Below are positions 44,548 through 60,100 of a stretch of DNA of 64,000 nucleotides, in pieces (the first letter of the stretch is position 1; the number at the start of each line of letters is the position of its first letter). The DNA comes from an uncultured bacterium. Its GTDB lineage: Bacteria; Zixibacteria; MSB-5A5; JAABVY01; JAHJOQ01. The stretch spans positions 1 through 64,000 of the forward strand of contig CBDUQR010000011.1 in NCBI GenBank assembly GCA_965369655.1, read 5' to 3'. The notes below the pieces were generated by a model. The model ran no database searches and was not told where the DNA came from. It saw nothing but the letters and a program-made list of their open reading frames with translations. A program made the translations under genes and the position numbers.

Positions 44548-45477
44548 TCACATCACATAGTAGTTCCCTAACTCAGCTTCCTTGCTGTTGATCGCTATCA
44601 GCGACTGTGAATTCTCAATGTCTTCCACCAAAACGTGATCATTTGAAGCAAGAGAAGGACCCAGCACAAAACCTAGGAAGGACACCTTGAATACAATGTA
44701 ATGGAAAAGCATGACAACCACTGTCACCATGTCATCCTTTGGCTTAATGTAAACCTTGTGCCACGTCTTGTAATGTCTGGCTGTGAATCTCTCAGTACTT
44801 ACAAGAGGGGTTATCTTCCCATCGACAACAAAATCTCTTACATGGTCAAGCTCCGGCATATAAGCCATATCCCCAAGCAACAGAGACAAGTACTCGAAGG
44901 CCATCAGGGTCATCACTCTATCATTTAGAAACTCCCCTTCACTGAAGTCTTGAAACAGTACATCAGTTCCAACGTTGCTCACTGTTACACCTGGCGTCAG
45001 ATGAAGAAGTCTATTCGGTCGCATGTCACTAACGGTTTGAAGCATCTGCTTAACCACATTCTCGTCAGCTACCTGTTTCTGCAGGATGGCTTCTATATGT
45101 TTCAAGTTCCCTTTTTTATCAAATACGATACTTCCGTCCTTCCGTTTGCTCACGATAACCTTGATACGATCTCTCCTCCCAAGAACGTGTTTGATTGGTT
45201 CTTGATCCTTTACTGGAGCTTCGTAGCTCTGATGTTTCTCGATTCGCTCGTGAATATCAGGTAGTTTACCCCGTAGTTGTCGTACTGCAAATCTAATTGA
45301 TGGGTCAGTCTTTACCTTTGAAATAAGCTGGGAGCCTAAAGTGCTATTACAGCGCTTGCAGAGTATTTTCGCCTGGAACTGGCCTCCGATACTCTCCGGA
45401 ATTATGTGCTCCCAAGAATCAGGATCATCTTTCAGACAGAATAGGCACTTCTCAAATGTGTATTCAAACTTTGCCAT
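44548..45477 (-). CDS. HNH endonuclease domain protein
   Basis: CLFC..EHIIPESIGG..LCKRCNS; AT-richer; start 45477 or 45504. Confidence 0.8.
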   Translation of the reverse strand: MAKFEYTFEKCLFCLKDDPDSWEHIIPESIGGQFQAKILCKRCNSTLGSQLISKVKTDPSIRFAVRQLRGKLPDIHERIEKHQSYEAPVKDQEPIKHVLGRRDRIKVIVSKRKDGSIVFDKKGNLKHIEAILQKQVADENVVKQMLQTVSDMRPNRLLHLTPGVTVSNVGTDVLFQDFSEGEFLNDRVMTLMAFEYLSLLLGDMAYMPELDHVRDFVVDGKITPLVSTERFTARHYKTWHKVYIKPKDDMVTVVVMLFHYIVFKVSFLGFVLGPSLASNDHVLVEDIENSQSLIAINSKEAELGNYYVM

Positions 45478-45701
45478 ATCACGTATATGCAGAATTCCAT
45501 TCATAATACAAGCTAAATCCTCATTCCCATGCTCGTCGGGGCTGTGCCCCGACGTCTCGCAGGAGCACAGCTCCTGCGTGCACAAGACATCGACGGGCGA
45601 GTACGTGAATCGGATGACAGAAGCCAATGAGCTATTGCCCACCTGCTGTGATTTTCCTATACTTCGTTAAATACTACTGATCTTCTCGAAAGGAGACTTC
45701 G

Positions 45702-46181
45702 ATGCGAAAACTGACAGTGATCGTTCTGTTGATCTTAGTAATGTCTACGTGCAGCGCATTTGCAAGAGAAGGCACGTTCGGACTCGGCGTGATGATCGGT
45801 GAACCGACAGGAGTCAGCGGAAAGCTCTGGCTCGGGCGCACGATGGCATTTGACGGTGGCGCGGCATGGTCATTCGGAAAACATAACAGACTGCACATTC
45901 ACGGGGATTATCTCTTCCACACGTTCTCACTGATACCTGTCGAGGTCGGCGATCTGCCGGTCTACTACGGTATCGGCGGGAGGATTCAACTCAGAGATAA
46001 CGACTGGGACGACCGTATCGGTGTGCGCTTTCCGGTAGGCTTGGAGTATATCTTCGAAGATGCACCGCTCGATATTTTCTTCGAGATTGCTCCGATTCTT
46101 GATCTCGCTCCGGAGACCGATCTCGAACTCAACGCCGCAGTCGGAATCAGATACTTCTTCGGCGGAAGAAGCCGCGATTAA
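45702..46181 (+). CDS. small outer membrane beta-barrel protein (DUF3996-like)
   Basis: Signal peptide, GLGVMIGEPTG, GVRFPVG, GIRYFF; SD AAGGAG; TTGCCC-N17-TATACT upstream. Confidence 0.7.
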   Translation: MRKLTVIVLLILVMSTCSAFAREGTFGLGVMIGEPTGVSGKLWLGRTMAFDGGAAWSFGKHNRLHIHGDYLFHTFSLIPVEVGDLPVYYGIGGRIQLRDNDWDDRIGVRFPVGLEYIFEDAPLDIFFEIAPILDLAPETDLELNAAVGIRYFFGGRSRD

Positions 46182-46237: not shown

Positions 46238-48010
46238 TCACAACACTTGCGAACTGAATTCTCCGGAGCGAGCGAGGGCGACCGGACCAGATGCGGTATC
46301 ATCTCTCGCTGACAACTTGGGAAGACCTTCGATGTATCTGCGCAGATAGACTGTGATACACGTTCCACCGTTGAGGCGCGACTCAACCTCGATACTCCCA
46401 CCGAGGTTCTCGACGATTCTTCGTACAATCGACAGCCCGAGGCCGGTGCCATCTTTCTTGGTCGAGAAAAACGGCTCGAAGAGTTTCATCTCCTGCTCCT
46501 CGGTCATGCCGGGACCGGTGTCGGACACGGTCAGCCTGATCCATTCGAGATTCGACATCGAGTACGCGATCTCAGGTTGATCGTCATAATCATCGACGCC
46601 AACTACGACCGTACCGTTGTCCGTGCCAATTGCCTCCACCGCATTCGCGAGCAGATTCAGCAGGAACTGGGTGAACATCTCTTCATCGCCTGAGATGTAC
46701 TCGGTGGTTTTGCGGGCCTTGTGTTCGAGCTTTATACCTTGATGGTACGATTGATTGTGGCGGACGATCTCGAACGCTCCGAGTATGAGATGGTTGATTT
46801 CGACTTTCGAGAACGACGGCCTTTTCACACGCGTGTAGTCGAGGAACTCGCCCAATATGTTGTTCAGTCTCCCCGATTCCTTCATGATCAGGCTCATCAG
46901 CCGACCGTTTTCGCCTTCGCACTCGAGTTCATGTATCAGGACTTCGACCGAACCCGATATCGCCGCGAGCGGATTTCTGATTTCATGCGCAATCCCGGCG
47001 GCCAGTTCTCCGACAGCGGCGAGCCGGTCAGCCCTTCTCATGCGTTCCTCGATCTCCTTCGCCTTCGTGAGATCCTGGAAGACCGCGACGACCCCTCTGA
47101 CTCCGTATCTGTCGTCGCCCAGCATCGACGTCGATATGCCGACAGGTATGCAGTCACCATCCTTCCTGCGAATCGTTATCTCGCTCCGAATGTCATGCTG
47201 GGAGGACTTCAAAGCGGAGAGTATTTTCTCGGCAAACTCCGGCATTTCTGACCGAAAGACGTCAAGGCAATTCCTTCCCTTAATCCTGGATTCCGAGAAT
47301 CCGGTAATTCTTTCCGCAGCTCGATTGAAGCAGACTATTTTTCCGTGGTTGTTTACGGTAATCAGCCCCGAGTGAAGATACCTGACTATCTCGTCTGTTT
47401 CAAGTCTCGCACGCTCGAGATTCTCGGATGCCGCCAGCAGTTCCCTGTCCTTGGCCCGTACTCGATCCGCAAGATAGCCGGAGATAAATGCCGTCAGGAA
47501 GAAAACGCAAAGGTGCACGAAAACCGTGAAGGATGTCTCGTCGTCAGTCAGGTATACGCTTGCCAACACCCTGATATCGAGTGCAGATCGCAGATCCGTT
47601 CCCGTGCCGAGCCAGATTGTAATGAAATATGCGGCAGAGGCGACTGTCGCGATCAGAAGCGTACCCACGAGCCTGTAGACGAGCGACGCCGAGACAATCG
47701 TCAGCACAAACAGTCCGGCGTATGGACTCGACACACAGCCGGAGTAGTACACGATCACAGCTTCGATATACAGCTCCGTAACAAGCTGCAGCAGGATCAT
47801 CCCCCTGTGGAACACGCTGCGTCGACCGAGCAACAGAGAGACCAGAAACAGCAAAGTCACAAGGCTGTAAACAAAAAGCGGAGCATACAGCTCCAGATGC
47901 GTACGCAACGAAGCTACAATGCTGCCGAAGACCACGAGGAAGATTATCAGCCTGAGCGGCATAAGCCACGTGTTTCTGATATCCGACTGATTGTTCCTGT
48001 CTCGCTTCAT
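46238..48010 (-). CDS. pilS: PilS-like sensor histidine kinase (TM-PAS-HisKA-HATPase)
   Basis: AHEIRNPL, NLLANA, DTGPG, GTGLGL; follows pilC. Confidence 0.8.
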   Translation of the reverse strand: MKRDRNNQSDIRNTWLMPLRLIIFLVVFGSIVASLRTHLELYAPLFVYSLVTLLFLVSLLLGRRSVFHRGMILLQLVTELYIEAVIVYYSGCVSSPYAGLFVLTIVSASLVYRLVGTLLIATVASAAYFITIWLGTGTDLRSALDIRVLASVYLTDDETSFTVFVHLCVFFLTAFISGYLADRVRAKDRELLAASENLERARLETDEIVRYLHSGLITVNNHGKIVCFNRAAERITGFSESRIKGRNCLDVFRSEMPEFAEKILSALKSSQHDIRSEITIRRKDGDCIPVGISTSMLGDDRYGVRGVVAVFQDLTKAKEIEERMRRADRLAAVGELAAGIAHEIRNPLAAISGSVEVLIHELECEGENGRLMSLIMKESGRLNNILGEFLDYTRVKRPSFSKVEINHLILGAFEIVRHNQSYHQGIKLEHKARKTTEYISGDEEMFTQFLLNLLANAVEAIGTDNGTVVVGVDDYDDQPEIAYSMSNLEWIRLTVSDTGPGMTEEQEMKLFEPFFSTKKDGTGLGLSIVRRIVENLGGSIEVESRLNGGTCITVYLRRYIEGLPKLSARDDTASGPVALARSGEFSSQVL

Positions 48011-48066
48011 GGCATAATTAAGCATCTCCGAACCGGGCCGGAGATGCTCAGACTAAGTCCGGTTAT

Positions 48067-49266
48067 CTAATTGATCTGCCCGATAATGTCGAACATCGGC
48101 AGATACATTGCGATCAGTATACCGCCGATCACCGCGCCCATAACGACGATCACCACAGGTTCAATCATCGAGGTGAGAGCCGAGACCGCAGCGTCGACTT
48201 CCTCATCGTAGAAATCGGCGATCTTCGAGAGCATCTCGTCGAGTCCACCGGTCTTTTCACCAACGGAGATCATCTGCACAACCATCGGCGGAAAAACGCC
48301 CGACTCTTTGAGCGGAGCCGTGATGGTATCACCCTCGGCAATCGAGATTGTCGCCTTCTTGATCGCATCGTGAACCACCCTGTTGCCAGCCGTTTTCGCC
48401 GTAGTGTCCAGCGCGTCGAGAATCGACACACCCGACGAAAGGAGCGTTCCGAGAGTCCGGGAGAATCGGGCCACCGCTGTCTTTCTGATCAGTGTCCCGA
48501 TCATCGGAATCCTCAATTTCATCCTATCAATCTGAAGGTGCCCTTTGTCGGTGCGCCCGATAAGCTTGTATGCTACTACAAGGCCGAGCGCAGAGAAGAT
48601 TATGACGCCAAAATGCGAGTTGATCCAGTCCGACAGAGCGAGGACGAACAACGTGGGACCGGGCAACTGAGCGCCGAGGTCCGCAAACATCTTGGCGAAA
48701 GTCGGCACGATGTATTTCAGCATACCGATAGTCGCGCCGAGCGCCACGATCGTCACAACAACCGGATACACGAGCGCACCCTTGACTTTCCTTGCCAGTG
48801 CGTCAGCTTTCTCGCGATAGTTGGCAAGACGGACAAGGATCGTGTCGAGAGCGCCGCCGATTTCTCCAGCCTCCACCATGTTGACATACAGGTCGTCGAA
48901 AACCTTCTTGTGCTTCCGCAATGCCTCAGACAGTGTCGTACCCGACTGCACCGATTCCTTGATCTGCGCTATGATCTTGCGAAGTTCCGGAGCCTCCATC
49001 TGCTCCGCAAGGATGTCGAGACACTGCACCATCGGCAGTCCTGCGCCGATCATCGTCGCAAACTGCCTCGTGAAGCGTGAGATGTGGATCTTCTTGATGC
49101 CGGTGCCGATCTTGATGTTGATGTCGGACGGCTTCCTGCTGATGGAACTGACCAGGATACGATTACTCCTCAGCATCCTTTCCAGCTCACCGCGGTTCTT
49201 AGCTTTTATCTGCCCCTGAACCGCCGACCCGCTGGCCGATTTACCCTTGTATTCGAATACTGGCAA
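48067..49266 (-). CDS. pilC: type IV pilus platform protein PilC
   Basis: FTRQFATM, AGEIGG, VGEKTG, MYLPMF. Confidence 0.93.
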   Translation of the reverse strand: MPVFEYKGKSASGSAVQGQIKAKNRGELERMLRSNRILVSSISRKPSDINIKIGTGIKKIHISRFTRQFATMIGAGLPMVQCLDILAEQMEAPELRKIIAQIKESVQSGTTLSEALRKHKKVFDDLYVNMVEAGEIGGALDTILVRLANYREKADALARKVKGALVYPVVVTIVALGATIGMLKYIVPTFAKMFADLGAQLPGPTLFVLALSDWINSHFGVIIFSALGLVVAYKLIGRTDKGHLQIDRMKLRIPMIGTLIRKTAVARFSRTLGTLLSSGVSILDALDTTAKTAGNRVVHDAIKKATISIAEGDTITAPLKESGVFPPMVVQMISVGEKTGGLDEMLSKIADFYDEEVDAAVSALTSMIEPVVIVVMGAVIGGILIAMYLPMFDIIGQIN

Positions 49267-49296
49267 GGTAACCTCCTTGCTTTTATGTGCGACCTG

Positions 49297-50373
49297 CTAA
49301 ACAGCTACAGCCGACGTCTTTCGTGATATGATCTCGTTGAGCTCAGCCTGGTTGGCGCTCCTCAATAGAGCATCGCCAATCGTGATCTTACGCGCCAGAT
49401 AAAGCTCAGCGAGAGAGTCATTCATGGTTTTCATTCCAAACTTCTGCCCCGACTGTATCATGCTGTAGATCTGGTGAACTTTGTCATCTCGGATGATCGC
49501 GCGAATCGCGGGCGTTGCTGTGAGTATCTCGTTCGCGAGAACTCTACCGCCTCCGATCTTCGGAATCAATTGCTGTACCACAATGGCCTGCACCACAAAC
49601 GAGAGAGTCACCCTCACCTGATCCTGTTGATTGTTCGGGAACACATCTATGATTCTGTTGATCGTTTCTGCGGAGGAATTGGTGTGAAGCGTCGCGAACG
49701 CAAGATGACCGGTCTCGGAAATCTTGATTGCAGATTCGATCGTTTCGAGGTCTCGCATCTCGCCGATGAGAACGACATCGGGATCCTCTCGTAATGCGTA
49801 TTTCAGTGCGCTCGCGAACGACTGAGTATCGGAGAACACTTCCCGCTGATTGACGATACTGTTCTGATGCCGGTGTAGATACTCGATAGGATCTTCCACT
49901 GTCAGGATATGCTCATAGCGTTCACGGTTAATCTTGTCGATTAACGCGGCGAGCGTTGTTGATTTACCGCTGCCCGTCGGGCCGCATATCAGAACGAGAC
50001 CGCGAGGGAGCTTCGAGAACTCCTCAACCGTCTTTGATACTCCGAGTTCTGCGAAACCTTTGATCTTGTATGGAATCTGGCGAAGGGCGACAGCTACGTT
50101 TCCACGCTGAACGAATATGTTGCAGCGGAAACGAGACAAGTTCTCGATACCGAAAGAGAGGTCGAGTTCGCTGGTTTCCTCGAACTTTAGCCGCTGTTTC
50201 TCATTCATCATCGAGTAAGCCAGCTTCTTGGTCAACTCGGGCGTCAGAACATCCATATCGAGCCTGATCAACCCGCCGTCGATTCTCACAACCGGCGGCA
50301 CGCCGACCGTCAGATGCAGATCGGAGGCGTTTTTCTTGATCATTATTTCAAGTAGTTCACGAAGTGAAACCAT
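49297..50373 (-). CDS. pilT: type IV pilus retraction ATPase PilT
   Basis: ASDLHL, GPTGSGKST, LREDPD, AIRAIIRD. Confidence 0.95.
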   Translation of the reverse strand: MVSLRELLEIMIKKNASDLHLTVGVPPVVRIDGGLIRLDMDVLTPELTKKLAYSMMNEKQRLKFEETSELDLSFGIENLSRFRCNIFVQRGNVAVALRQIPYKIKGFAELGVSKTVEEFSKLPRGLVLICGPTGSGKSTTLAALIDKINRERYEHILTVEDPIEYLHRHQNSIVNQREVFSDTQSFASALKYALREDPDVVLIGEMRDLETIESAIKISETGHLAFATLHTNSSAETINRIIDVFPNNQQDQVRVTLSFVVQAIVVQQLIPKIGGGRVLANEILTATPAIRAIIRDDKVHQIYSMIQSGQKFGMKTMNDSLAELYLARKITIGDALLRSANQAELNEIISRKTSAVAV

Positions 50374-50394
50374 GGTATATCTCTCCAGCTATGA

Positions 50395-52113
50395 TTACTT
50401 GTCAACCTCATTATTCTGATCGACCGCGGATGTGGCCAGCACCTCCGCGACCGTCGTCAGACCTTTCCTGAGTTTCTGGAGGGCTGCATGTCTCAGGGTC
50501 AGCATCCCTTCCTCGCAGGCCTTCGCGCGTATTTCAGGCACCGTAGCACCATCGAGGATCATTCTTTCGATCTCGGAGGAGATCGTCATCACCTCGAAGA
50601 TGCCGCTCCTGCCGGTGTATCCCGTATCGCTGCATTCTTTGCATCCGCGCGATTCGAAAACCTCGAAGCCATCTATCTCATCCTCCGGAACGCCCAGCCT
50701 CCGAAGCTGGTCCGGTTCGATATTCACTTTCCGTTTGCATTTCTGACAGACCAGCCGAACCATCCGCTGAGCCATAATCAGCTTTGTGGAAGATGCCACC
50801 AGGAAAGGCGGAATACCCATATCGATCAGACGGCTGATCGTAGATGGCGCGTCATTGGTATGGACAGTCGAGAATACCAGGTGACCGGTCAGTGCTGCTC
50901 GAATCGCTATCTCCGCAGTTTCCGAATCTCGAATCTCACCGACCATGATGATGTCCGGGTCCTGCCTCAGAAATGATCTGAGCGAGGCGGCAAATGTCAG
51001 CCCGATATTCGATCGCACCGCCACCTGGTTGATCCCGTCGAAGTTGAACTCGACCGGATCCTCAGCAGTCATGATGTTGACATCCACAGTGTTGAGCTGT
51101 TTCAACGCCGAATACAGCGTTGTCGTCTTGCCCGATCCCGTAGGTCCGGTCACAAGTATGATCCCGAACGGAAGATGGATAGTCTTCTTGAACGCATTGA
51201 GCGAACGCTCCTCGAACCCGAGCCGGGTCATATCGACCATCAGCGTCTTGGAATCGAGGATTCGCATCACGACTTTCTCTCCGAAAATCGTAGGCAGCAC
51301 GGAGACTCGCAGATCAACCGTCCTGTCGCCGATCTTCACCTTGATTCTGCCGTCCTGTGGAAGCCGCCTCTCCGAGATATCGAGATCCGCCATGATCTTG
51401 ACACGCGATATGATGGCGGCACGATACCTAAAAGGCAGCGGCGCCATCTCCATGAGCTTTCCATCCTTGCGAAACCTGACCCTGATGCGTTTCTCATAAC
51501 ATTCGATATGGATATCGGAAACTCCCTTGCGGATAGCGTCAGAGATAATCGAATCGACAAGCTTCACCAGCGGCTTGTCCTGAACCTGCGACTGAAGATC
51601 CTGGTCCGACAGCACATCATCCTGCGACTCGACCACCTCGAGATCCGACTCCTCTATGTCCCTCAGGATTTCGGAGAATCCATCCGACTCGACATAGTAC
51701 TGGTCAATCGACTTTGAGATCGCGCTTTCCGGCGAAATCACCGGCTGGATATTGCAGCCCGTGATAAACTTGATCGCATCAAGTACGTAGATATTGCTCG
51801 GATCACTGATCGCGACCACAAGCGACCTGTTGATCTTGGAAACCGCTATGACACTGAACTTGCGCGCAATATCGACAGGAATCAGCTTCACGATATCGGG
51901 GTTGAGTTCGACGTCAGTCAGCCTTATCGCCCCGATATTCAACTGCTTGCCGATGAAAGTTGAGATTTCATCCTCATCGGAGACTGCGCCGAGTCGTACG
52001 AGAATCTCCTCTAACCTGCCCTGACCGGACTCGAAAAGTCCTACCGCTTTCGTAAGCTGCTCTTCGCTGATCTTGCCAGCGTTTAGCAGCATTGTGCCGA
52101 GTTCGCTCTCCAT
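50395..52113 (-). CDS. pilB: type IV pilus assembly ATPase PilB
   Basis: LGTMLLNAGKISEEQL N-terminus, GPTGSGKTT, RQDPD, CxxC..CxxC. Confidence 0.95.
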   Translation of the reverse strand: MESELGTMLLNAGKISEEQLTKAVGLFESGQGRLEEILVRLGAVSDEDEISTFIGKQLNIGAIRLTDVELNPDIVKLIPVDIARKFSVIAVSKINRSLVVAISDPSNIYVLDAIKFITGCNIQPVISPESAISKSIDQYYVESDGFSEILRDIEESDLEVVESQDDVLSDQDLQSQVQDKPLVKLVDSIISDAIRKGVSDIHIECYEKRIRVRFRKDGKLMEMAPLPFRYRAAIISRVKIMADLDISERRLPQDGRIKVKIGDRTVDLRVSVLPTIFGEKVVMRILDSKTLMVDMTRLGFEERSLNAFKKTIHLPFGIILVTGPTGSGKTTTLYSALKQLNTVDVNIMTAEDPVEFNFDGINQVAVRSNIGLTFAASLRSFLRQDPDIIMVGEIRDSETAEIAIRAALTGHLVFSTVHTNDAPSTISRLIDMGIPPFLVASSTKLIMAQRMVRLVCQKCKRKVNIEPDQLRRLGVPEDEIDGFEVFESRGCKECSDTGYTGRSGIFEVMTISSEIERMILDGATVPEIRAKACEEGMLTLRHAALQKLRKGLTTVAEVLATSAVDQNNEVDK

Positions 52114-52160
52114 GCGGAAAGATTCCTTCCTCTAACTCTGCTTCAGGTCGACAGGGCCCT

Positions 52161-52649
52161 TTAGTCGTGGAAAATGTCGTCCAGTTTATCCCCCGCCGAC
52201 GCGGTGAATTCGTCAGTCAGCCCTTCGGCATCGGAGTGGTCCTTCTCGAGACTCTCCGCGAATATCTGATCGAGATCAGTCGAGGCTTCCTTTGCGTAAA
52301 GCCGAACCATCCCGATCGTAGTGCGGTCGTCGAAAACGACCACGAGGATACTGCGATCACCCACGAGAGACATGTGTATGTGATCGCGCTTGCCCTGGTG
52401 GAAGAGTACCGAGAATTCCGGTTCGCCCACCAGACGCGCAATCTCCCTTGTCGAGGCAAAGCTGCCCGCCAGCAGAGCTGCAAGTGAGGTGGTATCCAGA
52501 GACTGGGTGAATCCCTGCCTGGTCACGAGGTGACCATCCTTGTCAACCAGAAGAGCGCACTTCGCTTCCGAACCCTTCAGAAGCCTCTTCAGCGCGAGAT
52601 TAATCTTCTCGGTCTCCGCCTGATAGATGATTAAACTGTCGTCTGTCAC
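52161..52649 (-). CDS. mglB: MglB roadblock/LC7 GTPase-activating protein
   Basis: LVDKDG, DTTSLAAL, FHQG, GMVRL, acidic C-terminal helix, as in Myxococcus MglB; SD AGGAGG. Confidence 0.88.
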   Translation of the reverse strand: MTDDSLIIYQAETEKINLALKRLLKGSEAKCALLVDKDGHLVTRQGFTQSLDTTSLAALLAGSFASTREIARLVGEPEFSVLFHQGKRDHIHMSLVGDRSILVVVFDDRTTIGMVRLYAKEASTDLDQIFAESLEKDHSDAEGLTDEFTASAGDKLDDIFHD

Positions 52650-52665
52650 GATCTATCCTCCTGAT

Positions 52666-53901
52666 TTATCTCTTCCCGAATAACCAGCGGAAAAGGAAGA
52701 AACGCTTCTTCTTCTTCGCCCTGAGCGATTCCCGCATCGTTGGCACAGAGAATACCGACCGTTCTTTCGGATCCAGATCCTCCGGATCCTCCTCGGATTC
52801 TTCCCGGTGGGCGATATTCGGCAAACGCCTGTATAGCTCGTTTCCACCCACTGGATGCGGTTCGGGCGTTCCCGCCAACGATTCCGTGACGGCCGGACCA
52901 CTCTCGATCTGTCCCGTTTCGATCTCGTCTTCCAATTGCTCTTCGGCAACAACAGTTGTCCTCTGATGGATATCCTGTTGTGGAGAGCTGATTTCCTGCT
53001 CAGTGGCAGTGACCACACTTGACGGTTCCATGCTTTTCTCGGGTTCGTCACGAACACCAACTGGAGGCGGAGGTGTAACGACTGGCTGATCGACGCCGTG
53101 CGGTTCTGACACGGCAGCCGTCCTGTATTCATCCGTATGGACCGGTGAAGGCTCGGAGACTATGGGTCCCACTACCTGAGCCGATTGCCGATCCGCCGTT
53201 GTTTCAGATGTTTTCTTGATTTCAGCATGGTATTTTTCCTGGCTTTCCGCTGCGGGAACCGGCTCCACAGAGGCAAGATTTGCATCCTCGACCTTCTGCG
53301 CGGCATCCAGCGTCTCGGGTTCTTTCTTCGCTCTGTCGAGAACCAGTTTGATGACGTATTTCAGCGTGTCGAACACGCCTTTGCCGCTCGATGCACACGC
53401 CTCGAAGACACGCCACTTGTTTTCGTTCATCAATTCGTCGAGTTCCTGGATGCTCATCACATCCGAAAGATCGCGCTTGTTGTACTGCATCACGAACGGC
53501 AGGGTGCTGAGATCGATGCCATACTCCTCGAGATTCTCCTTCAGATTGTTCAGGCTTTCGACATTTTCATCGGCCTTTGCCCGCTGAGAGTCCGCGACGA
53601 ACACGATCCCGTCCACACCACGGAGCACCAGCTTTCTTGTCGCATTGTAGAAGACCTGTCCCGGGACAGTATAAAGCTGGAACTTCGTGGTGAAGCCGTT
53701 GATATCCCCGATATTTATGGGAAGAAAATCGAAATAGAGTGTCCTGTCCGCATCGGTGGCGAGACTGATCAGGTCGCCCCTGGTCTTGTCCGGCACCTTG
53801 CTGTGTACATACTGCAGATTGGTCGTCTTGCCCGACAGCCCCGGACCGTAGAATACGATCTTGCAGCTAACTTCCCGAGTGTTGTAATTGATTACTACCA
53901 T
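52666..53901 (-). CDS. mglA: MglA small GTPase with a long C-terminal extension
   Basis: KIVFYGPGLSGKTTNL, DRTLYFDFLP, TVPGQVFY, NKRDL. Confidence 0.92.
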   Translation of the reverse strand: MVVINYNTREVSCKIVFYGPGLSGKTTNLQYVHSKVPDKTRGDLISLATDADRTLYFDFLPINIGDINGFTTKFQLYTVPGQVFYNATRKLVLRGVDGIVFVADSQRAKADENVESLNNLKENLEEYGIDLSTLPFVMQYNKRDLSDVMSIQELDELMNENKWRVFEACASSGKGVFDTLKYVIKLVLDRAKKEPETLDAAQKVEDANLASVEPVPAAESQEKYHAEIKKTSETTADRQSAQVVGPIVSEPSPVHTDEYRTAAVSEPHGVDQPVVTPPPPVGVRDEPEKSMEPSSVVTATEQEISSPQQDIHQRTTVVAEEQLEDEIETGQIESGPAVTESLAGTPEPHPVGGNELYRRLPNIAHREESEEDPEDLDPKERSVFSVPTMRESLRAKKKKRFFLFRWLFGKR

Positions 53902-53910
53902 AGCCTGGGC

Positions 53911-54249
53911 TTACACCATTTTGATTTGCGATAATGCGTGCTTCATTTCGAGTCTGATAAGGCCGATATTGACATCCTTCTCGGCGGTCACCACCAGTAT
54001 GCCAATTTCATTCGAAGAAAGGAATAGCTTGCCATGATCCGCCTCGATCGTCACCTGCGACATTTCCTCCTCGTCAAGCCTCTGGAGAGAGTTGTTTACA
54101 TTTGCCGTTATCGAAGCGGCGAGCGCGCCCACTGTGTCTTCCTGAAATCGCGAATCGAGATCGGCGGCGATCACGATGCCGTCGTGACCGACAATCATGC
54201 TGCCGGTGACTCCGCTGGTGCGGTTGACATCCTCAAGTATCTCAAACAT
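53911..54249 (-). CDS. stand-alone roadblock/LC7 protein
   Basis: GVTGSMIVGHDGIVI, NIGLIRLEM. Confidence 0.85.
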   Translation of the reverse strand: MFEILEDVNRTSGVTGSMIVGHDGIVIAADLDSRFQEDTVGALAASITANVNNSLQRLDEEEMSQVTIEADHGKLFLSSNEIGILVVTAEKDVNIGLIRLEMKHALSQIKMV

Positions 54250-55201
54250 AACTTTCCTCCAGAATCTTTTTCACACTCGTATCGATATATCTCTGTTCGT
54301 ACGTTCTCTTTATCATGTCTGCGGCCTGGTTCATCCTGACCTTTTCAAGTTCCTCCGAATTGCGATCGGCGCATACCAGCAGCCACATCCCGCAGACTCC
54401 AGTCGCATGAATCCTGAACGCATCCAGGGAAAGATCAAATGCCTGCAGTACGACGTCGGATACACGCAGAAGTGAAGACTGTATCTGCTCAGTGATAAGG
54501 CGACCGACAGGCGCCCAGATGTCCCGCAGAATCGGTTCGTCGCCGGCGAAGGCCACCGGCAGGCCATCTGCATCGATGAGGACTGCGAATTTCACAGCTG
54601 CAAGTTCGCAAACATGTCTTACCGCCGCATCGAATCCCTTCGGAATCGTTTCCGACTGCTCTACGGCCGGCTGACCAATCACGATTCTCGGAGCGCTCGG
54701 CCTGGCAACTACTTCGCGCCTGGTTTCACCCACGTCCGAGGCCAGCTTCATCCCCTTGAGCGGATCACGGTATGGCGTGATGGATATCTTGCCTATGACT
54801 TCGCTTCCGCTCTCAAATGCTATCCGGAAAACCGACATCAGCACAAACGGGGTGGTGAGTGTATGCAACAGAAGCGCAGGCTTGTACCCCCACAAACCGT
54901 TTGCGAAAGCATCACCCGGACTGAGCCCTTTCATAAGAACAAGCAGCATGGCAAAAACGGTCCCGACCAGCAGCCTGAAACCGACGGAAAGTATTGCTGC
55001 GGTCACCACATTCCGAAATGGCGGACTGTCGAGAAAAATGAATACGACAGATCCATAGAAGATCAGTTCGGCCAGGATATACACGAGCAATGGAATACCG
55101 AATCCAAGCCCGAGATCACTCGGGAAGAATATGAGCGGCACAATTGCAATTATCAGAAAGAGCAGAACTATGTGCCTTATTTCTCGAGCATTCAAATCCA
55201 T
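54242..55201 (-). CDS. membrane protein with a C-terminal roadblock-like domain
   Basis: About 4 N-terminal TM helices; VKFAVLIDADGLPV; SD GAGGTGA before ATG 55201. Confidence 0.7.
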   Translation of the reverse strand: MDLNAREIRHIVLLFLIIAIVPLIFFPSDLGLGFGIPLLVYILAELIFYGSVVFIFLDSPPFRNVVTAAILSVGFRLLVGTVFAMLLVLMKGLSPGDAFANGLWGYKPALLLHTLTTPFVLMSVFRIAFESGSEVIGKISITPYRDPLKGMKLASDVGETRREVVARPSAPRIVIGQPAVEQSETIPKGFDAAVRHVCELAAVKFAVLIDADGLPVAFAGDEPILRDIWAPVGRLITEQIQSSLLRVSDVVLQAFDLSLDAFRIHATGVCGMWLLVCADRNSEELEKVRMNQAADMIKRTYEQRYIDTSVKKILEESYV

Positions 55202-55212
55202 ATCGTCACCTC

Positions 55213-56085
55213 TCATATGTTCCTGAGAGAATCGCACAGCCTGGCCACCTTCAGCTTCAGCGAGCCGAGATTGATGTTCGTTCGACACCGGAGGCCAAGG
55301 ATTCGATCAGGCAGGGCGATCAGCGCCCACATCCCACTGCTATTTTCTATCAGAAGCTCCCTCCATCCGCCCAAACGTATCGACCCGATTCCGGCGCCGA
55401 CGAATCGGCACACTTCGGTCAGCGAAGCTGACACGGCATTCAGGTCATACCCGTCGGGAGCAATCGCATCGCCCACAAGCCCTTCGTAATTCGTATAAAA
55501 GACGGCTTCGACTCCGGGGAATCCGGAAACCCTGTCGAGAGCCGATTCGTACGTAACAGGCTCATCTCCTTTATCATCATCCGTCTGCATGAACCCGTCA
55601 GCTTCCTTCTCCTTCAAGGAAGCCCCGTAGAACTCCTCCGTCTCCGCCAGCTTAGCTTTCCTGGATATTTTTCCCTCTTGGATCTTGTCTTGCAAAGATT
55701 TCAGATATTCATTGGCTGGATCGGCAGACCTGAGTTCTCCGAGCCTCACGGCTGCCTTGGAGAAGAAACCCTTTTCGATCAGTATTTCCGTCTCCAGAAT
55801 GTCGGTGACTCTGGTTCGGCCATCCAACCTGATTGCCTCTGAGAGCTCTTTCTCGGCCCAATCGTACATCTTGCGATCATGGCTGATTCGAGCCATTACC
55901 AGGTGTCCCGCGCCGTAGTCAGGGTGCATCCGCAGACCCTGCAGGCAGACCCGGAAGGCTGCATCGAGTTCACCCTTTTTGCGCAGGGCCTCGGCCAGAG
56001 CTGCGAAAATCTGGGAGTGGGGATTGTCCCTGAGAATATTCTCGCATTTGCCAATACGCTCGTCGATTACAGCAGTGTCTATCAT
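55213..56085 (-). CDS. TPR + roadblock/LC7 domain protein
   Basis: FAALAEALRKKG TPR start; PGVEAVFYTNYEGLV..INLGSLKL. Confidence 0.75.
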   Translation of the reverse strand: MIDTAVIDERIGKCENILRDNPHSQIFAALAEALRKKGELDAAFRVCLQGLRMHPDYGAGHLVMARISHDRKMYDWAEKELSEAIRLDGRTRVTDILETEILIEKGFFSKAAVRLGELRSADPANEYLKSLQDKIQEGKISRKAKLAETEEFYGASLKEKEADGFMQTDDDKGDEPVTYESALDRVSGFPGVEAVFYTNYEGLVGDAIAPDGYDLNAVSASLTEVCRFVGAGIGSIRLGGWRELLIENSSGMWALIALPDRILGLRCRTNINLGSLKLKVARLCDSLRNI

Positions 56086-56119
56086 AACGATCCTCGATAC
56101 AGTCGGTGGTCGCCCGGAA

Positions 56120-56488
56120 TCAACTCAGGACTCTCCTGATTCTCGACACCCCTATCATCACAGTGCAGAGCCCAACCAGGCGTATAAGCATGATCACGTT
56201 CTCGCTCACATCTGCTATGGATAGCAGGGCAGTTAGTCTGACTACTTCGGCTATCACCAGAATCACGAATGAGATGGCCAGGACCTGCCAGGCTGAGGCC
56301 AGCTCTCCACCCTTCAGGCATGAGAAAATCCTGAGGGCAATGAAGACGCATATACCTGTGAGCAAAATCATCAGGACGGCCAGAAGAAGTGCCGCTATCG
56401 ACGAGTCGGCCAGACCAACGGATGCGTCCGCGCGGCTCGGCGCAACGAACATCATCGCTAATATCAATGGCAGAATGACTCTGTTCAT
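56120..56488 (-). CDS. small membrane protein
   Basis: Signal-like N-terminus plus 3 hydrophobic helices; in operon. Confidence 0.65.
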   Translation of the reverse strand: MNRVILPLILAMMFVAPSRADASVGLADSSIAALLLAVLMILLTGICVFIALRIFSCLKGGELASAWQVLAISFVILVIAEVVRLTALLSIADVSENVIMLIRLVGLCTVMIGVSRIRRVLS

Positions 56489-56498
56489 ATGAAAGCCT

Positions 56499-57689
56499 CT
56501 ACAATGCTGAAGTTCGTTTGCTCTCTTTCAGCACGCGGAAAATGTCCGTCTCGAGGTCATACTTCGTGCTGACTTTTCTCTTCTCGGCGATCGGAAGTGA
56601 TATTTCTTTCTTGATCTCGGACTCGACCGTGCGGAGTACATTCACGCCCAGCAGAGACCTGACTATCGCCAGTTGTTCGGTCAGAATCCAATTGAGCCCT
56701 GTCAGGAGCTTGTGCACCCTGGCTTCCCTCGGAATTTTCTGAATCGTTCGATGAAAATTCGCAAAATTCTCCCGTGGGTCCGAGTGTCTAAAGTTCGTGA
56801 AATGAGCCCAGACGCCCTTTTGATATGTCCCGAGAAGCTCATTGACCCTCATATTGTCTGAGCCGAGTTTGCGTTGCAGGTTGCGGCGTATCGCGTCGAA
56901 ACATGCGGAGTAGAGCTTCAGAATAAGCCACCAGAGCTGCTCCTCTTCCTTTGGATCCTCGACCTCGTCCGCCGATCTGGCTCCGATGTTCTCAATCAGC
57001 TTCGCAGCTAGAAGAGCGTGTATTCCGCGATATGTCGCGAATTCACCAACCGGCGACACAGAGACAATATCGCTCAACGTCCTCTCTCCATTAATTACCG
57101 AAAGCACATTGAACTCCTCAAGCGAGAGAGCGATTTCGTCGGCTTTGATCTGGGGAGACATCGCCACTCTCAGAACTTCATTTTCTTTCGGCAGCGACTT
57201 CCTGATTTCGAGCCACTCGTCAATCCTGCGAGTACCCTCCATGATCACATTCATAGTGGTCAGATTCACCAGAACGTCTTTGATCTCAGGCAGCTTGCCC
57301 TCCTGGAAGATGAAATCACCTGACTCCCACGAGAAGAGGTTGTAGACTATCTCCTCGACCTGCAACTTGAGACATCCCGCGATTTCTTCACGGCTGAAGA
57401 GTTCCATATCGACAAGGGTCATCCCTATCCTCTTGCCGGAACTCCTCTGCAACATCAACGCCCTCTCCAGATCGATCTTGCTGATTCGACCTCGTCTCAG
57501 CAGGAGATTGCCGAGCAGATCCTCGTCGGAGTTCCTCGAGGTGGCATAGATAATATTACCATCCTTGAAGCATATCTCTTTCTGGACTTCGCCCAGCGTT
57601 ATCGAGAGCATGCCTGTTTTCTTGCCAGTCGACAGCAATTGCAGAATGTCCGGAAACGCAATAGTATTAAGGTTGCCGGTAAAGGCCAT
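56499..57689 (-). CDS. DUF4388 (PATAN) domain protein
   Basis: MAFTGNL..PDILQLL..KKTGML, FSWESGDF, MEGTRRIDEW; true start at 57689. Confidence 0.85.
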   Translation of the reverse strand: MAFTGNLNTIAFPDILQLLSTGKKTGMLSITLGEVQKEICFKDGNIIYATSRNSDEDLLGNLLLRRGRISKIDLERALMLQRSSGKRIGMTLVDMELFSREEIAGCLKLQVEEIVYNLFSWESGDFIFQEGKLPEIKDVLVNLTTMNVIMEGTRRIDEWLEIRKSLPKENEVLRVAMSPQIKADEIALSLEEFNVLSVINGERTLSDIVSVSPVGEFATYRGIHALLAAKLIENIGARSADEVEDPKEEEQLWWLILKLYSACFDAIRRNLQRKLGSDNMRVNELLGTYQKGVWAHFTNFRHSDPRENFANFHRTIQKIPREARVHKLLTGLNWILTEQLAIVRSLLGVNVLRTVESEIKKEISLPIAEKRKVSTKYDLETDIFRVLKESKRTSAL

Positions 57690-57847: not shown

Positions 57848-60100
57848 CTACTCGGCGGATAATGCGCAGGTTACGCTTACATCTGTCTGCCCAATACTGA
57901 ACCTGACAGCTCCGCGTTTCTGCGTGTCGATGAGCTGCACCCCGAAACTGTGCATTTGCTGAGCAAGGAAGTCGAGATCGACATGGCTTGTCCACGACGG
58001 ATAGCTGTAAATTATGACAACCGACGGCGAGAGCAGCCTGATTCGGTCGAAATACTTTGAAACAGGATGACTTGGATATGGCAGGGCGAGAATATCCACA
58101 GTCGAAATGCTGTCCGACTCTGATGATCCAAGCCAATCCCACGACGACAGCCAGAGCAGTGAATGATCTTTCAGAATGACATGAGCCTTTTCGACGCCCA
58201 GCGTTGATTTCCACAGGTGAATAGCGTAATCGTTGTTGGAAAGCGGCTTGTCTGAATTTGAATCCTGAAGCGCTGGCAGAGATTCCAGCATCAGTGCAGA
58301 TTGATCTGTCGCAGTTTCCTCCCCCGACGAACAGGTTCCCCACAGTTCCGTTTCATCTGCGCCCTCGCCGGACAGATACGGGATGATTATGCGTTCAACC
58401 TGGTCGAATCCACCGTCAGATTGTGCATTTGTAAGCATGAAATCGTAGTCGGGTGGTATGCGCACGTGCATGGCTGTTTCACTGCCGAGGTCGAGAAATG
58501 TGACGGTTGCATTCGGACTCGCCTGCCTCGCTACGGATTTCCACACCAGTATATTTGCCCACACGAATACGATCAGCAGAAGATAGCGGAGCGATTTCGT
58601 CGATCTGAATGCCCCGTAGAACAAAAACAGGGTCGCATAGTAGAAAACAATATCTGTCAGACTCGGCGCACCGACCGACAGTTTGACCACCGGCAGCGAT
58701 GCAAAGAAGTCGACAAGCCAGATCGATATATGCAGCGACAGTTGTGTCAGAACGGCAAGCAGATCGCCCAGAATCGGCACCGGCGCGAACAGGACAAGCA
58801 GCAGCGACAAGGTCACCGACAACGAGGCGAGCGGTATCACCAGTAGATTTGATATGAAAGTGATGAGAGGTATTCTCCCGAAATAGTAAGCAAGAATCGG
58901 CGCGACCATTATCTGCACGACAACAGATGACGCCAGTATCATCAAGCCATAAAGAAGGACCTTCTTCCACATTCCCTGGAGACCGGTTGAGCGCGGCATC
59001 ATTCCCTTCAGAAGGTAGATGAGACTGAATGCTGCCGCAAACGACAACTGGAAACCGACGTCGAAAAGCATCATCGGATTGATCATAAGGATCAGCAGCG
59101 CCGCCACCGCTATGATATTGAGCAGGCTGCCTTTTCGATAGACAATCCTGCCGATCAGGACAAGTCCGATCATCAGAGACGCCCGAACAACCGAGGGCTG
59201 ATTGAACGACAACTGGCAGAACACGATGATCACTCCGAGCGACAGGACATCGACGACTCGTCGCCTGACACCGGCAAACCTGAACAGAAATACCAGCGTC
59301 CCGATTACGAGCGCAACATTGGAACCCGACACTGCCAGCAGATGAAGTGTACCGGTGTCTCTGAATCGTTCGTAGAGCTGCTGCGGGATGAACCTCGTCT
59401 CACCGATAAGGAATCCTGCGACCAGATGTTGTTCGCTGCCTGCCAGTCTGGTCTTGAATACATCGAGTATGTATTCTCTCAATGGTATGATGATCCCTGA
59501 GAGGAATCGATTCCCCTCGCCCGGTCCGAGCACTCTCGCCTGCTCACGATGCTTCACGCTGACATACGAGTTGATGCGTTTGAGCATCAGATACCGCCTG
59601 TAGTCGAAGCCGTGGAAATTCCTCCTCTCGAAAGGAGCGCCCAGATAACCTGTCACGGCGATCCTGTCAGCGTAGTTAAAACGATCGTCGAAATGAGCGA
59701 TCCTCGCGAGCATTAACCCGGAGGTCGGAATCGGCTCGTCGGTGATGTACAGAGTGTCGCATTCCACAGTCAGATAGGTCTTGTCGGGTCGCACATCCGG
59801 CTCCCTGACAATCCGACCGATCACCATCACCTGCTGCGGCAGATTGTTGAAACCGGAAATGTGATTCGGCGGGAAATTAACCGCGCTAAGATTGTACCTG
59901 AACACGCCGAGCAGTACGAGGCTGACTGCACCGAAGACAATCAACCATCGAATCGACTTCTTGTGCAACGCGATAAGTCCCGCGACAAATCCGACCGCGA
60001 GCGCACAGAACGCAATAAAATCGGGCGGATGAAACAGTGTACCGGCGAGTATTCCGAGAATGAGAAACAGACAGGCTGCCGCGGCGGGATATTTCAGCAT
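57848..60100 (-). CDS. comEC: ComEC/Rec2 competence protein with degenerate C-terminal MBL domain
   Basis: HLLAVSGSNV, PSVVRA, GFQLSFAA. Confidence 0.9.
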   Translation of the reverse strand: MLKYPAAAACLFLILGILAGTLFHPPDFIAFCALAVGFVAGLIALHKKSIRWLIVFGAVSLVLLGVFRYNLSAVNFPPNHISGFNNLPQQVMVIGRIVREPDVRPDKTYLTVECDTLYITDEPIPTSGLMLARIAHFDDRFNYADRIAVTGYLGAPFERRNFHGFDYRRYLMLKRINSYVSVKHREQARVLGPGEGNRFLSGIIIPLREYILDVFKTRLAGSEQHLVAGFLIGETRFIPQQLYERFRDTGTLHLLAVSGSNVALVIGTLVFLFRFAGVRRRVVDVLSLGVIIVFCQLSFNQPSVVRASLMIGLVLIGRIVYRKGSLLNIIAVAALLILMINPMMLFDVGFQLSFAAAFSLIYLLKGMMPRSTGLQGMWKKVLLYGLMILASSVVVQIMVAPILAYYFGRIPLITFISNLLVIPLASLSVTLSLLLVLFAPVPILGDLLAVLTQLSLHISIWLVDFFASLPVVKLSVGAPSLTDIVFYYATLFLFYGAFRSTKSLRYLLLIVFVWANILVWKSVARQASPNATVTFLDLGSETAMHVRIPPDYDFMLTNAQSDGGFDQVERIIIPYLSGEGADETELWGTCSSGEETATDQSALMLESLPALQDSNSDKPLSNNDYAIHLWKSTLGVEKAHVILKDHSLLWLSSWDWLGSSESDSISTVDILALPYPSHPVSKYFDRIRLLSPSVVIIYSYPSWTSHVDLDFLAQQMHSFGVQLIDTQKRGAVRFSIGQTDVSVTCALSAE

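Follow-up and report, generated by a model that had tools for sequence, protein, structure and literature searches.

An enlarged MglA/MglB module immediately before type IV pilus motor genes, conserved across the Zixibacteria

What does an MglA/MglB polarity switch do when it is encoded directly ahead of type IV pilus motor genes and in the company of several further roadblock proteins? This question is raised by a stretch of 64,000 nucleotides, here called the window, from an uncultured bacterium of the Zixibacteria (GenBank assembly GCA_965369655.1, contig CBDUQR010000011.1, positions 1 to 64,000, forward strand). Eleven minus-strand open reading frames (ORFs), running from position 57689 down to 46238, encode in order a PATAN/DUF4388 protein, a membrane protein, a roadblock protein with a TPR array (TPR-roadblock), a roadblock protein with a transmembrane (TM) region (TM-roadblock), a stand-alone roadblock protein, MglA, MglB, PilB, PilT, PilC and PilS. 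The seven regulatory genes, from the PATAN gene through mglB, are an enlarged MglA/MglB switch placed directly ahead of the pilus motor genes. The reading favored here, with a probability of roughly 0.6 and argued from sequence and analogy, is that this variant, probably tethered to the membrane, decides where the type IVa pilus (T4aP) motor works and whether it does so. The features concerned are the following.

56499..57689, minus strand: PATAN/DUF4388 protein, 396 amino acids (aa); candidate PilB/PilC-binding output
56120..56488, minus strand: 122-aa membrane protein of no known family
55213..56085, minus strand: TPR-roadblock, 290 aa
54242..55201, minus strand: TM-roadblock, 319 aa; candidate membrane anchor
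53911..54249, minus strand: stand-alone roadblock, 112 aa; an MglC-like role is proposed
52666..53901, minus strand: MglA, 411 aa; its G domain (residues 1-195) corresponds to window 53317-53901
52669..52758, minus strand: C-terminal tip of MglA, by its sequence a probable membrane-binding segment
52161..52649, minus strand: MglB, 162 aa; by sequence a canonical coupled-type GTPase-activating protein (GAP) with a C-terminal helix
50395..52113, minus strand: PilB extension ATPase; TIGR02538 over cut-off; degenerate N-terminal MshEN motif
49297..50373, minus strand: PilT retraction ATPase; TIGR01420 over cut-off
48067..49266, minus strand: PilC platform protein, T2SSF; its best NCBIfam match is myxobacterial PilC
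46238..48025, minus strand: PilS-like sensor kinase with 6TM_PilS, PAS and HisKA domains; last gene of the conserved block
57848..60100, minus strand: comEC, Pfam Competence; flanks the seven-gene unit without being a member of it

From the DUF4388 gene to pilS the intergenic gaps are 10, 34, 11, -8, 9, 16, 47, 21, 30 and 41 bp, the 11-bp value taking the ATG of the TM-roadblock at 55201. An earlier reading, made from the letters of the window alone (the sequence-only reading), had described a co-oriented eleven-gene run with gaps under about 50 bp and with comEC and murJ upstream on the same strand. Both descriptions hold: all ORFs stand in that order with gaps from -8 to 47 bp, comEC ends 158 bp from the PATAN gene, and murJ overlaps comEC. 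No strong terminator was found inside the seven-gene unit, and a promoter scan of the locus came out at chance level (10 found, 10.3 expected).

Conservation was followed in two partly overlapping sets of loci, 35 from relatives and 80 found with MglB, and in two sets of genomes, 40 relatives and a phylum sample of 151. Gene order is identical in 35/35 and 80/80 loci up to the contig limits, apart from four breaks after pilB that separate it from pilT (L050, L085, L103 and L143), an arrangement beyond chance; the synteny on which the sequence-only reading had made its claim depend is conserved in both sets. The mglB gene is followed by pilB in 34/34 and 78/80 loci, both misses being contig ends, and comEC lies directly upstream in 30 of the 31 loci that extend that far. 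The gene after pilS varies, which gives the block a real edge. The mglA gene is present in 35/40 relatives and in 149/151 genomes of the phylum sample, and the TM-roadblock family occurs in the same 149; mglA frames are longer than 300 aa except for one of 238 aa and those of two genomes cut by contig ends. Orthologue scores drop after about 170 clusters.

The unit can also be missing as a whole. In G012 (96% complete) and G021 (88%), comEC and pilB stand 290 and 284 bp apart (junctions L167:7048-11720 and L168:6745-10943), and pilB-pilT-pilC-pilS are kept. The genes for MglA, MglB, the 112-aa roadblock and the PATAN protein were not found in these two genomes or in G030 (52% complete), and the TM-roadblock was not found in a genome-wide search of G012, the only genome of its genus searched. 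Since all seven genes are absent in one genus that keeps the motor genes, the seven make up one dispensable unit, and sequence comparison indicates that they are inherited as one unit ahead of pilB. A tree of PilB plus PilC (36 rows, 962 columns; L042, L050, L064 and L065, split or partial, were left out) places the module-free genus as sister to the rest with a support of 0.60 and a distant outgroup, and thus does not tell loss of the unit from its gain. A further genome, G075, is without mglA, mglB, the roadblocks and an orthologous pilB, with pilM and a RomY-like gene kept; this is likely an assembly gap and was not counted as a loss.

This pattern bears on the view that the genes form a general polarity or division-site system whose position beside pilB is a historical accident. 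The motor genes do persist without the unit, yet the mglB-pilB join is never broken within contigs, while pilB-pilT broke four times. The housekeeping neighbors murJ and comEC are likewise syntenic, in favor of this view, but the N-terminal motif of PilB differs with and without the unit, as detailed below, and a 96%-complete genome without the system makes a need in division unlikely. The view also draws on another lineage, represented by metagenome contigs L175-L202, whose tailed MglA can reach 734 aa and whose mglA loci have a PATAN gene upstream in 16/24 and mglB downstream in 20/24; in the flanking DNA, as far as examined, neither pil genes, pilB among them, nor extra roadblocks were found. 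Taken together, a positional accident is judged very unlikely. The occurrence of PATAN, tailed MglA and MglB outside the phylum makes these three a more widespread core. Among the lineages surveyed, which stop short of the neighboring phyla, only this phylum shows the additional roadblocks and the mglB-pilB join. The same lineage also encodes a TPR protein of about 705 aa, and its MglB has a C-terminal extension that brings it up to 272 aa.

At the center of the unit, MglA carries DRTL and TVPGQ, and its match to the M. xanthus protein has an E of 7e-75. Among 97 relatives, G1 is intact in 95, DRT[LIV] in 95 and TVPGQV in 94, in agreement with the earlier remark that the catalytic Arg and Gln are kept. 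Group-1 MglA is defined by an Arg finger beside the G2 Thr and by TVPGQ as G3 (PMC4316618), and by sequence this protein, encoded by a single-copy gene, belongs to group 1 with its catalytic residues intact. Actinobacterial conservons hold a group-2 MglA, with GTPGQ as G3 and without an Arg finger, beside a CvnA kinase and a DUF742 protein; here the motifs are those of group 1 and no DUF742 occurs among the cluster genes. A working definition limits MglA to a single G domain of 150-240 aa, larger GTPases having been set aside in the survey that uses it (PMC4316618), and the 411-aa protein exceeds this range. Since longer group-1 members are still listed in Table S2 of that survey, as far as consulted, the length marks a variant only. 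MglB matches M. xanthus MglB at E 1.4e-44 over residues 4-162, up to the C-terminus. In M. xanthus MglB the surface that binds MglC comprises K14, R115 and K120. Here R116, equivalent to M. xanthus R115, is present in 95/95; the position of M. xanthus K14 holds Q, K or R, and that of K120 holds E in 94/95, with K or R one residue earlier. With mglA adjacent, where the coupled clade allows a distance of four genes, with its profile match to M. xanthus MglB and with a C-terminal helix, it has the features of a coupled group-1 MglB.

The region after the G domain is 119-451 residues long in 35 relatives, whose MglA measures 314-649 aa. This linker, about 200 residues in the window, is of low complexity, with much A, P, E and S and hardly any aromatics, and leads to a P-x-M-A-P-S-L-[RK] box followed by a polybasic run and an aromatic cluster. 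This tip motif occurs in 91/97 distinct tails (110 were collected, one truncated tail was removed and duplicates were merged) and in 0/1900 linker windows. Its charge and aromatic residues suggest that the tip likely binds the membrane. In its letters the tip resembles the membrane-targeting sequence of MinD, and both are short, basic and aromatic C-terminal segments on P-loop switch proteins. The sequence of MinD is a C-terminal amphipathic helix of weak affinity (PMC6803595), and unlike it the MglA tip ends a linker of 119-451 residues. Group-1 MglA binds MglB as a monomer, so the avidity that MinD gains from dimers need not apply. An apparent MglA-MglB fusion (P0271) was set aside, since it seems to be a read-through over a frameshift. 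Six long proteins (P0325, P0330, P0335, P0339, P0343 and P0357) join an MglA-type G domain to DUF4388, a receiver domain and PF14237; as sequences, such MglA-DUF4388 fusions hint that PATAN and MglA work together.

The count of four roadblock proteins in the cluster was confirmed, all four domains passing profile tests. Pfam calls Robl_LC7 for the 112-aa protein (E 7e-14) and for MglB and makes no roadblock call for the TPR- and TM-fused proteins of the window; among their orthologues, 22/36 TPR-roadblocks and 21/36 TM-roadblocks match Robl_LC7. Aligned to the 112-aa roadblock with hhalign, the two reach probabilities of 99% (TPR-roadblock) and 97% (TM-roadblock), with reversed controls at or below 0.3%. 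The TPR-roadblock domain matches roadblocks in the PDB, down to E 9e-12, and the profile of the TM-roadblock also matches solved roadblocks, on which its model superposes with Z 17.6 and a root-mean-square deviation (rmsd) of 1.9 over 117 aligned residues. On these sequence and model comparisons, both fused domains have the Roadblock/LC7 fold. The extra roadblock domains score best against Asgard roadblocks, and LAMTOR2 is also matched.

Each of the three extra proteins has its own conserved layout. The TPR-roadblock consists of a short N-terminal TPR array, recognized by TPR hits, a linker and a C-terminal roadblock whose helix 3 begins with a conserved N-L-G-x-L-[RK], with G274 in 90/90; its TPR domain, about 130 aa in the cluster, has no NCBIfam match. 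Elsewhere in the genome, a 220-aa TPR protein (G000:C96:922-1584, L206) has N-terminal TPRs that match the TPR-roadblock profile (E 7e-21) and is a possible paralogue by sequence. In the TM-roadblock, alignment and model show an N-terminal helical membrane domain (residues 5-130) with invariant P27, E45 and R76, a disordered linker, and a C-terminal roadblock that carries a D-x-[ED]-G-L hairpin, with G213 in 95/95 and L214 in 94/95. No usable Atlas match was obtained for the membrane domain, the fold searches with this protein being dominated by its roadblock half. In families f9 and f18 the TM-roadblock is a soluble protein of 133-170 aa (for example L058:8972-9373 and L060:10691-11092). The 112-aa roadblock keeps D23-G24-I25 as well as N94, G96, L97, R99, L100 and E101 in 92/92. 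Its profile reaches E 0.34 against M. xanthus MglC (7ct3), well below its scores against archaeal roadblocks, and its D23-G24-I25 would correspond to MglC D26/I28 by position in the fold only. In MglC, which belongs to the orphan-1 roadblocks (MglB_orphan1 clade), D26 and I28 lie in a hairpin that meets MglB in an AlphaFold model (PMC10329633).

Structure prediction suggests how these domains may fit together. The complex of the three extra roadblock domains scored 0.71, against 0.51 for the best control, with runs agreeing in at least 88% of contacts and a partner pLDDT (predicted local distance difference test score) of at least 83. The mark used is reached by 116/157 solved complexes and by 2/215 mismatched pairs, a calibration that is only rough for three chains with custom alignments. 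In the predicted complex the TM-roadblock hairpin 210-217 touches the 112-aa roadblock at residues 94-100 and the TPR-roadblock at 271-278, the closest contacts being those of invariant R99 of the 112-aa protein with D212/L214 of the TM-roadblock. The interface residues R99, G213, L214 and G274 are the best-conserved positions, with the counts given above. Modeling thus gives marginal support to a TM-roadblock docked on its two partners. R99 aligns with MglB R116, whose M. xanthus counterpart, R115, meets MglC D26/I28 in an AlphaFold model; RomR binds the basic four-helix face of MglC (PMC10329633). From the hairpin-to-helix contacts and the equivalence of R99 and R116, a chain can be proposed that would run from the membrane through the TM-roadblock and the 112-aa and TPR-roadblocks to MglB and MglA.

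Two further roadblock proteins, which bring the genome's total to six, lie away from the cluster at a two-gene locus (G000:C3:100152-101518; L207, L209). The first gene (G000:C3:100152-100763, 203 aa) fuses a RomY-like N-domain to a roadblock (98%), and the next (251 aa), adjacent in 27/30 loci, has an N-terminal roadblock (97%) and a helical C-domain of no known family. NF053858, the RomY N-domain profile, matches 28/30 orthologues of the first, with a best E of 6e-10. In M. xanthus, RomY stimulates the GAP activity of MglB through its N-domain (PMC9481161). The RomY-like gene occurs in 36/40 relatives and in 61/61 of a second sample, and it was not found in the three module-free genomes. RomR, made up of a receiver domain, a Pro-rich linker and an acidic helical C-terminus, seems to have no counterpart: a RomR-like layout with a Pro-rich linker was seen in 0/41 receiver-domain proteins of the genome, searched with a genome-trained profile instead of a RomR profile, so that an atypical receiver could be missed.

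The link to the motor would fall to the PATAN protein. It matches DUF4388 in Pfam (E 1.8e-32) and holds an inserted pair of MshEN-type helical hairpins (residues about 58-110), a winged-helix-like domain (about 168-237) and a helical C-domain without a clear fold (best Z 8.7, helical). No match between this C-domain and that of the 251-aa roadblock protein was obtained (4%). The insert scores 45 bits on NF053729 (cut-off 38), and its model fits the c-di-GMP domains of MshE and PilF over 52 residues with an rmsd of 0.7-1.8. The MshEN signature comprises two RLGxx...LxxxLxxQ motifs, five residues apart, in which Arg9 and Gln32 are important to the binding of c-di-GMP (PMC5013675). Among 80 inserts, G60 is kept in 79, G89 in 77 and Q110 in 78, the first Arg in 3 and the first Gln in 9, with His in its place in 65. 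The 122-aa membrane protein, present in 34/35 loci, has an N-terminal hydrophobic segment and three TM segments by hydropathy, together with a conserved GG-x5-W; its Atlas look-alikes are unnamed and belong mostly to Zixibacteria clusters. In PilB itself the N-terminal MshEN motif reaches 37.2 bits on NF053729, under the cut-off. The Arg9 position of this motif is E/D in 91/91 module-bearing genomes and the second glycine is kept in only 14. In the PilB of the module-free genus both copies have K-L-G twice plus Gln, and one of these genomes scores 62.5 bits, a contrast that comes from one lineage and one comparison.

These features can also be read as a sensory on/off switch without a role in polarity, in which the two membrane proteins respond to a signal from the envelope or a surface, PATAN-MshEN reads c-di-GMP and PilB is toggled cell-wide. 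The MshEN-type insert is indeed over the cut-off, but it lacks the first Arg in 77/80 and mostly has His for the first Gln. Invariant P27, E45 and R76 exceed the needs of a plain anchor; the membrane domain that bears them is nevertheless absent in 11 genomes. The degenerate PilB motif in every module-bearing genome, near-canonical in the module-free genus, and the missing RomR-like polar landmark among the 41 receiver proteins both agree with such a switch, yet Myxococcus has MglB and RomY as its spatial GAP pair, and here MglB and a RomY-like protein are both retained. A purely sensory switch is therefore considered unlikely, and control of the place as well as the activity of the motor by a membrane-tethered MglA/MglB variant remains the preferred reading.

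The machine to be controlled is spread over at least four loci. The genome has PilB, PilT, PilC, PilM/N/O, PilQ and a major pilin, and on the sequence of these components it encodes a type IVa pilus machine. Two major pilins lie behind a sigma-54 response regulator (pilR) on contig C2, pilM/N are found on C81, C26 carries pilO together with a split pilQ, and C18 has the minor pilins. The switch had been called self-contained from the window alone, a description that does not survive this distribution and the placement of the RomY-like pair on C3. PilQ appears divided into an AMIN-domain protein of 510 aa and a secretin of 434 aa (G000:C26:37373-40222, L204). An 870-aa ORF tried as PilY1 was ruled out, since it is leucyl-tRNA synthetase (LeuRS). 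Among relatives, no pilR is labeled after pilS. A separate GspE/GspF/secretin cluster lies on G000:C3 (about 38.7-48 kb), and C61:389-1378 encodes another ATPase of the PilT family. In the window, pilS is separated from the ATP synthase operon by an ORF with an HNH domain (window 44548-45642, minus strand), in a stretch of lower GC content (0.47), and by a 159-aa signal-peptide protein (window 45702-46181, plus strand); atpI follows closely 3' of pilS in 13/85 relatives' loci, so that this stretch looks inserted.

What the pili are used for is a separate matter. The switch might mainly time DNA uptake by competence pili working with ComEC, rather than surface motility. The near-constant upstream position of comEC points that way; its adjacency to pilB persists without the seven genes, however, and is thus independent of them, and 158 bp separate comEC from the unit. 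Flagellin, present in 28/41 genomes, indicates that many cells own another motor, but the unit is kept also in families where flagellin was not found. On the same distribution, a link of the unit to flagella was rejected. A role confined mainly to DNA uptake is quite unlikely, and it is compatible with pilus motor control by the MglA/MglB variant, since one pilus can serve both.

Under the preferred reading, MglA would cycle between GTP and GDP, with the basic-aromatic tip of its long linker keeping it at the inner membrane. MglB would act as its GAP, as close homology indicates, aided by the unlinked RomY-like protein. The acidic hairpin of the TM-roadblock is predicted to dock on the helix-3 face of the 112-aa and TPR-roadblocks, and the free D23-G-I25 hairpin of the 112-aa roadblock may in turn bind MglB R116, so that a chain from membrane to MglB would replace the RomR-MglC-MglB chain of Myxococcus. 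The PATAN protein, perhaps with the TPR domain, would relay the signal to PilB/PilC. Control of pili by such proteins has parallels: the PATAN domains of Synechocystis are binding partners of PilB1 and PilC (bioRxiv 2021.06.11.447907), pili are a target of MglA in Myxococcus, Bdellovibrio and Thermus (PMC7519303), and Myxococcus MglA controls pili through the TPR protein SgmX (PMC7668184, PMC11580455). A more detailed version, in which a bacterial phylum would run its Ras-like switch at the membrane in a eukaryote-like manner, is tentative and rather doubtful as a whole: MglA tethered to lipid, up to six roadblocks forming a membrane-anchored, Ragulator-like hairpin-to-helix scaffold in place of RomR, and the c-di-GMP site of PilB traded for control by scaffold and PATAN protein. 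The sequence-only reading had proposed an elaborate GTPase switch for pili outside the myxobacteria. The expanded group-1 module, its conserved linkage to the motor, the absence of the unit as a whole in one genus and the predicted contact among the extra roadblocks speak for this proposal, and its pilus-control part is argued from gene order and analogy.

Several observations weigh against this account. The joint absence of the seven genes is that of one lineage and counts as a single event, and in the lineage outside the phylum the core genes have neither extra roadblocks nor pilB in the flanking DNA examined. The membrane domain is absent from the TM-roadblock in 11/149 genomes (families f9 and f18), so that this anchor is not universal. 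The genome's own RomY-like copy reaches 30.6 bits where the cut-off is 50, and in G033, which is 98% complete, the cluster is present and the RomY-like gene was not found. The three-roadblock complex passes at exactly the required margin of +0.20, and, roadblock oligomers having already been solved, the pass may reflect likeness to them. Finally, in the first test of the MglA tip (11-mers, n=96) the hydrophobic moment was 0.48, against 0.58 in shuffles. A narrower 8-mer test, chosen afterwards, gave 0.61 against 0.46, and a two-plus-two hydrophobic pattern occurs in 60/96 tips; with the 11-residue moment lower than in shuffles, a MinD-like amphipathic helix is not claimed as shown.

The nearest known system is the polarity module of M. 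xanthus. Both have a group-1 MglA with Arg finger and TVPGQ, an MglB with the R115 equivalent and a C-terminal helix, another small roadblock besides MglB, a RomY-like N-domain, a predicted docking of acidic hairpin on basic helix, and T4aP as the target. In contrast to the 195-aa MglA of M. xanthus, the protein here has 411 aa and a basic-aromatic tip; mglA precedes mglB, and the pair is joined to pilB; the 41 receivers include none that resembles RomR; and the cluster holds four roadblocks, one membrane-integral and one TPR-fused, with two more at the RomY-like locus. Gene order and pil linkage had been put forward as departures from Myxococcus, and both are seen here. As to linkage, mglC (MXAN_5770) and sgmX (MXAN_5766) presumably adjoin the M. 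xanthus pil cluster, which would weaken that contrast. As to order, it is not unique, since Fibrobacter Fisuc_0226, a 313-aa MglA, also shows mglA-mglB (PMC4316618). The SgmX of M. xanthus, with 1,060 aa and 14 TPRs (PMC7668184), is far larger than the TPR domain of about 130 aa found here.

Other comparisons place the parts in print and leave the combination apart. In group-1 neighborhoods such as that of Chloroflexus, PATAN and MglA are accompanied by more than one roadblock gene (PMC4316618, Table S2), with at most two roadblock genes each in the section of the table examined, against four here; pil genes, tails and fusions to TM or TPR regions are not entered in that table as far as consulted. 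Both the coupling of one group-1 MglA to two roadblocks (PMC4719450) and PATAN neighbors of group-1 MglA (PMC4316618) have been published, so the label of an undescribed system was overstated, while its core stands in that no description of this cluster was found. As with the PatA-type regulators of Synechocystis, PATAN is encoded with pilus motor control; unlike these, which belong to a chemosensory kinase system, the protein here is linked to a GTPase and has an MshEN-type insert and winged-helix-like and helical domains where the PatA type has its receiver. Several roadblocks scaffolding a small GTPase also recall, by analogy only, the Ragulator-Rag and Asgard systems. In the present case the GTPase is MglA and not Rag, and the likeness may come from nothing more than nearness to the consensus of the fold; an analogy between MglB and Ragulator has already been drawn (PMC13408092). 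For Zixibacteria, no published description of the cluster or of the MglA tail was found in a search that covers few subscription papers, and supplements may list the genes. The cluster thus exists, is conserved and seems not to have been published; it is a variant of the MglA/MglB switch assembled from known parts.

MglA/MglB is the best-studied Ras-like switch of bacteria, and its spatial control is known almost only from RomR-dependent Myxococcus. The variant described here is near-universal in one phylum, seemingly without RomR, and the membrane-integral roadblock and the GTPase tail are candidate substitutes. With a small set of mostly soluble domains and named interface residues, it offers a route to understanding how MglA may be placed, and may reach PilB, without RomR or SgmX, and the genus without the unit provides a natural comparison. 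The system also bears on the bacterial origin of membrane-bound GTPases and multi-roadblock scaffolds, which are usually seen as eukaryotic and Asgard traits.

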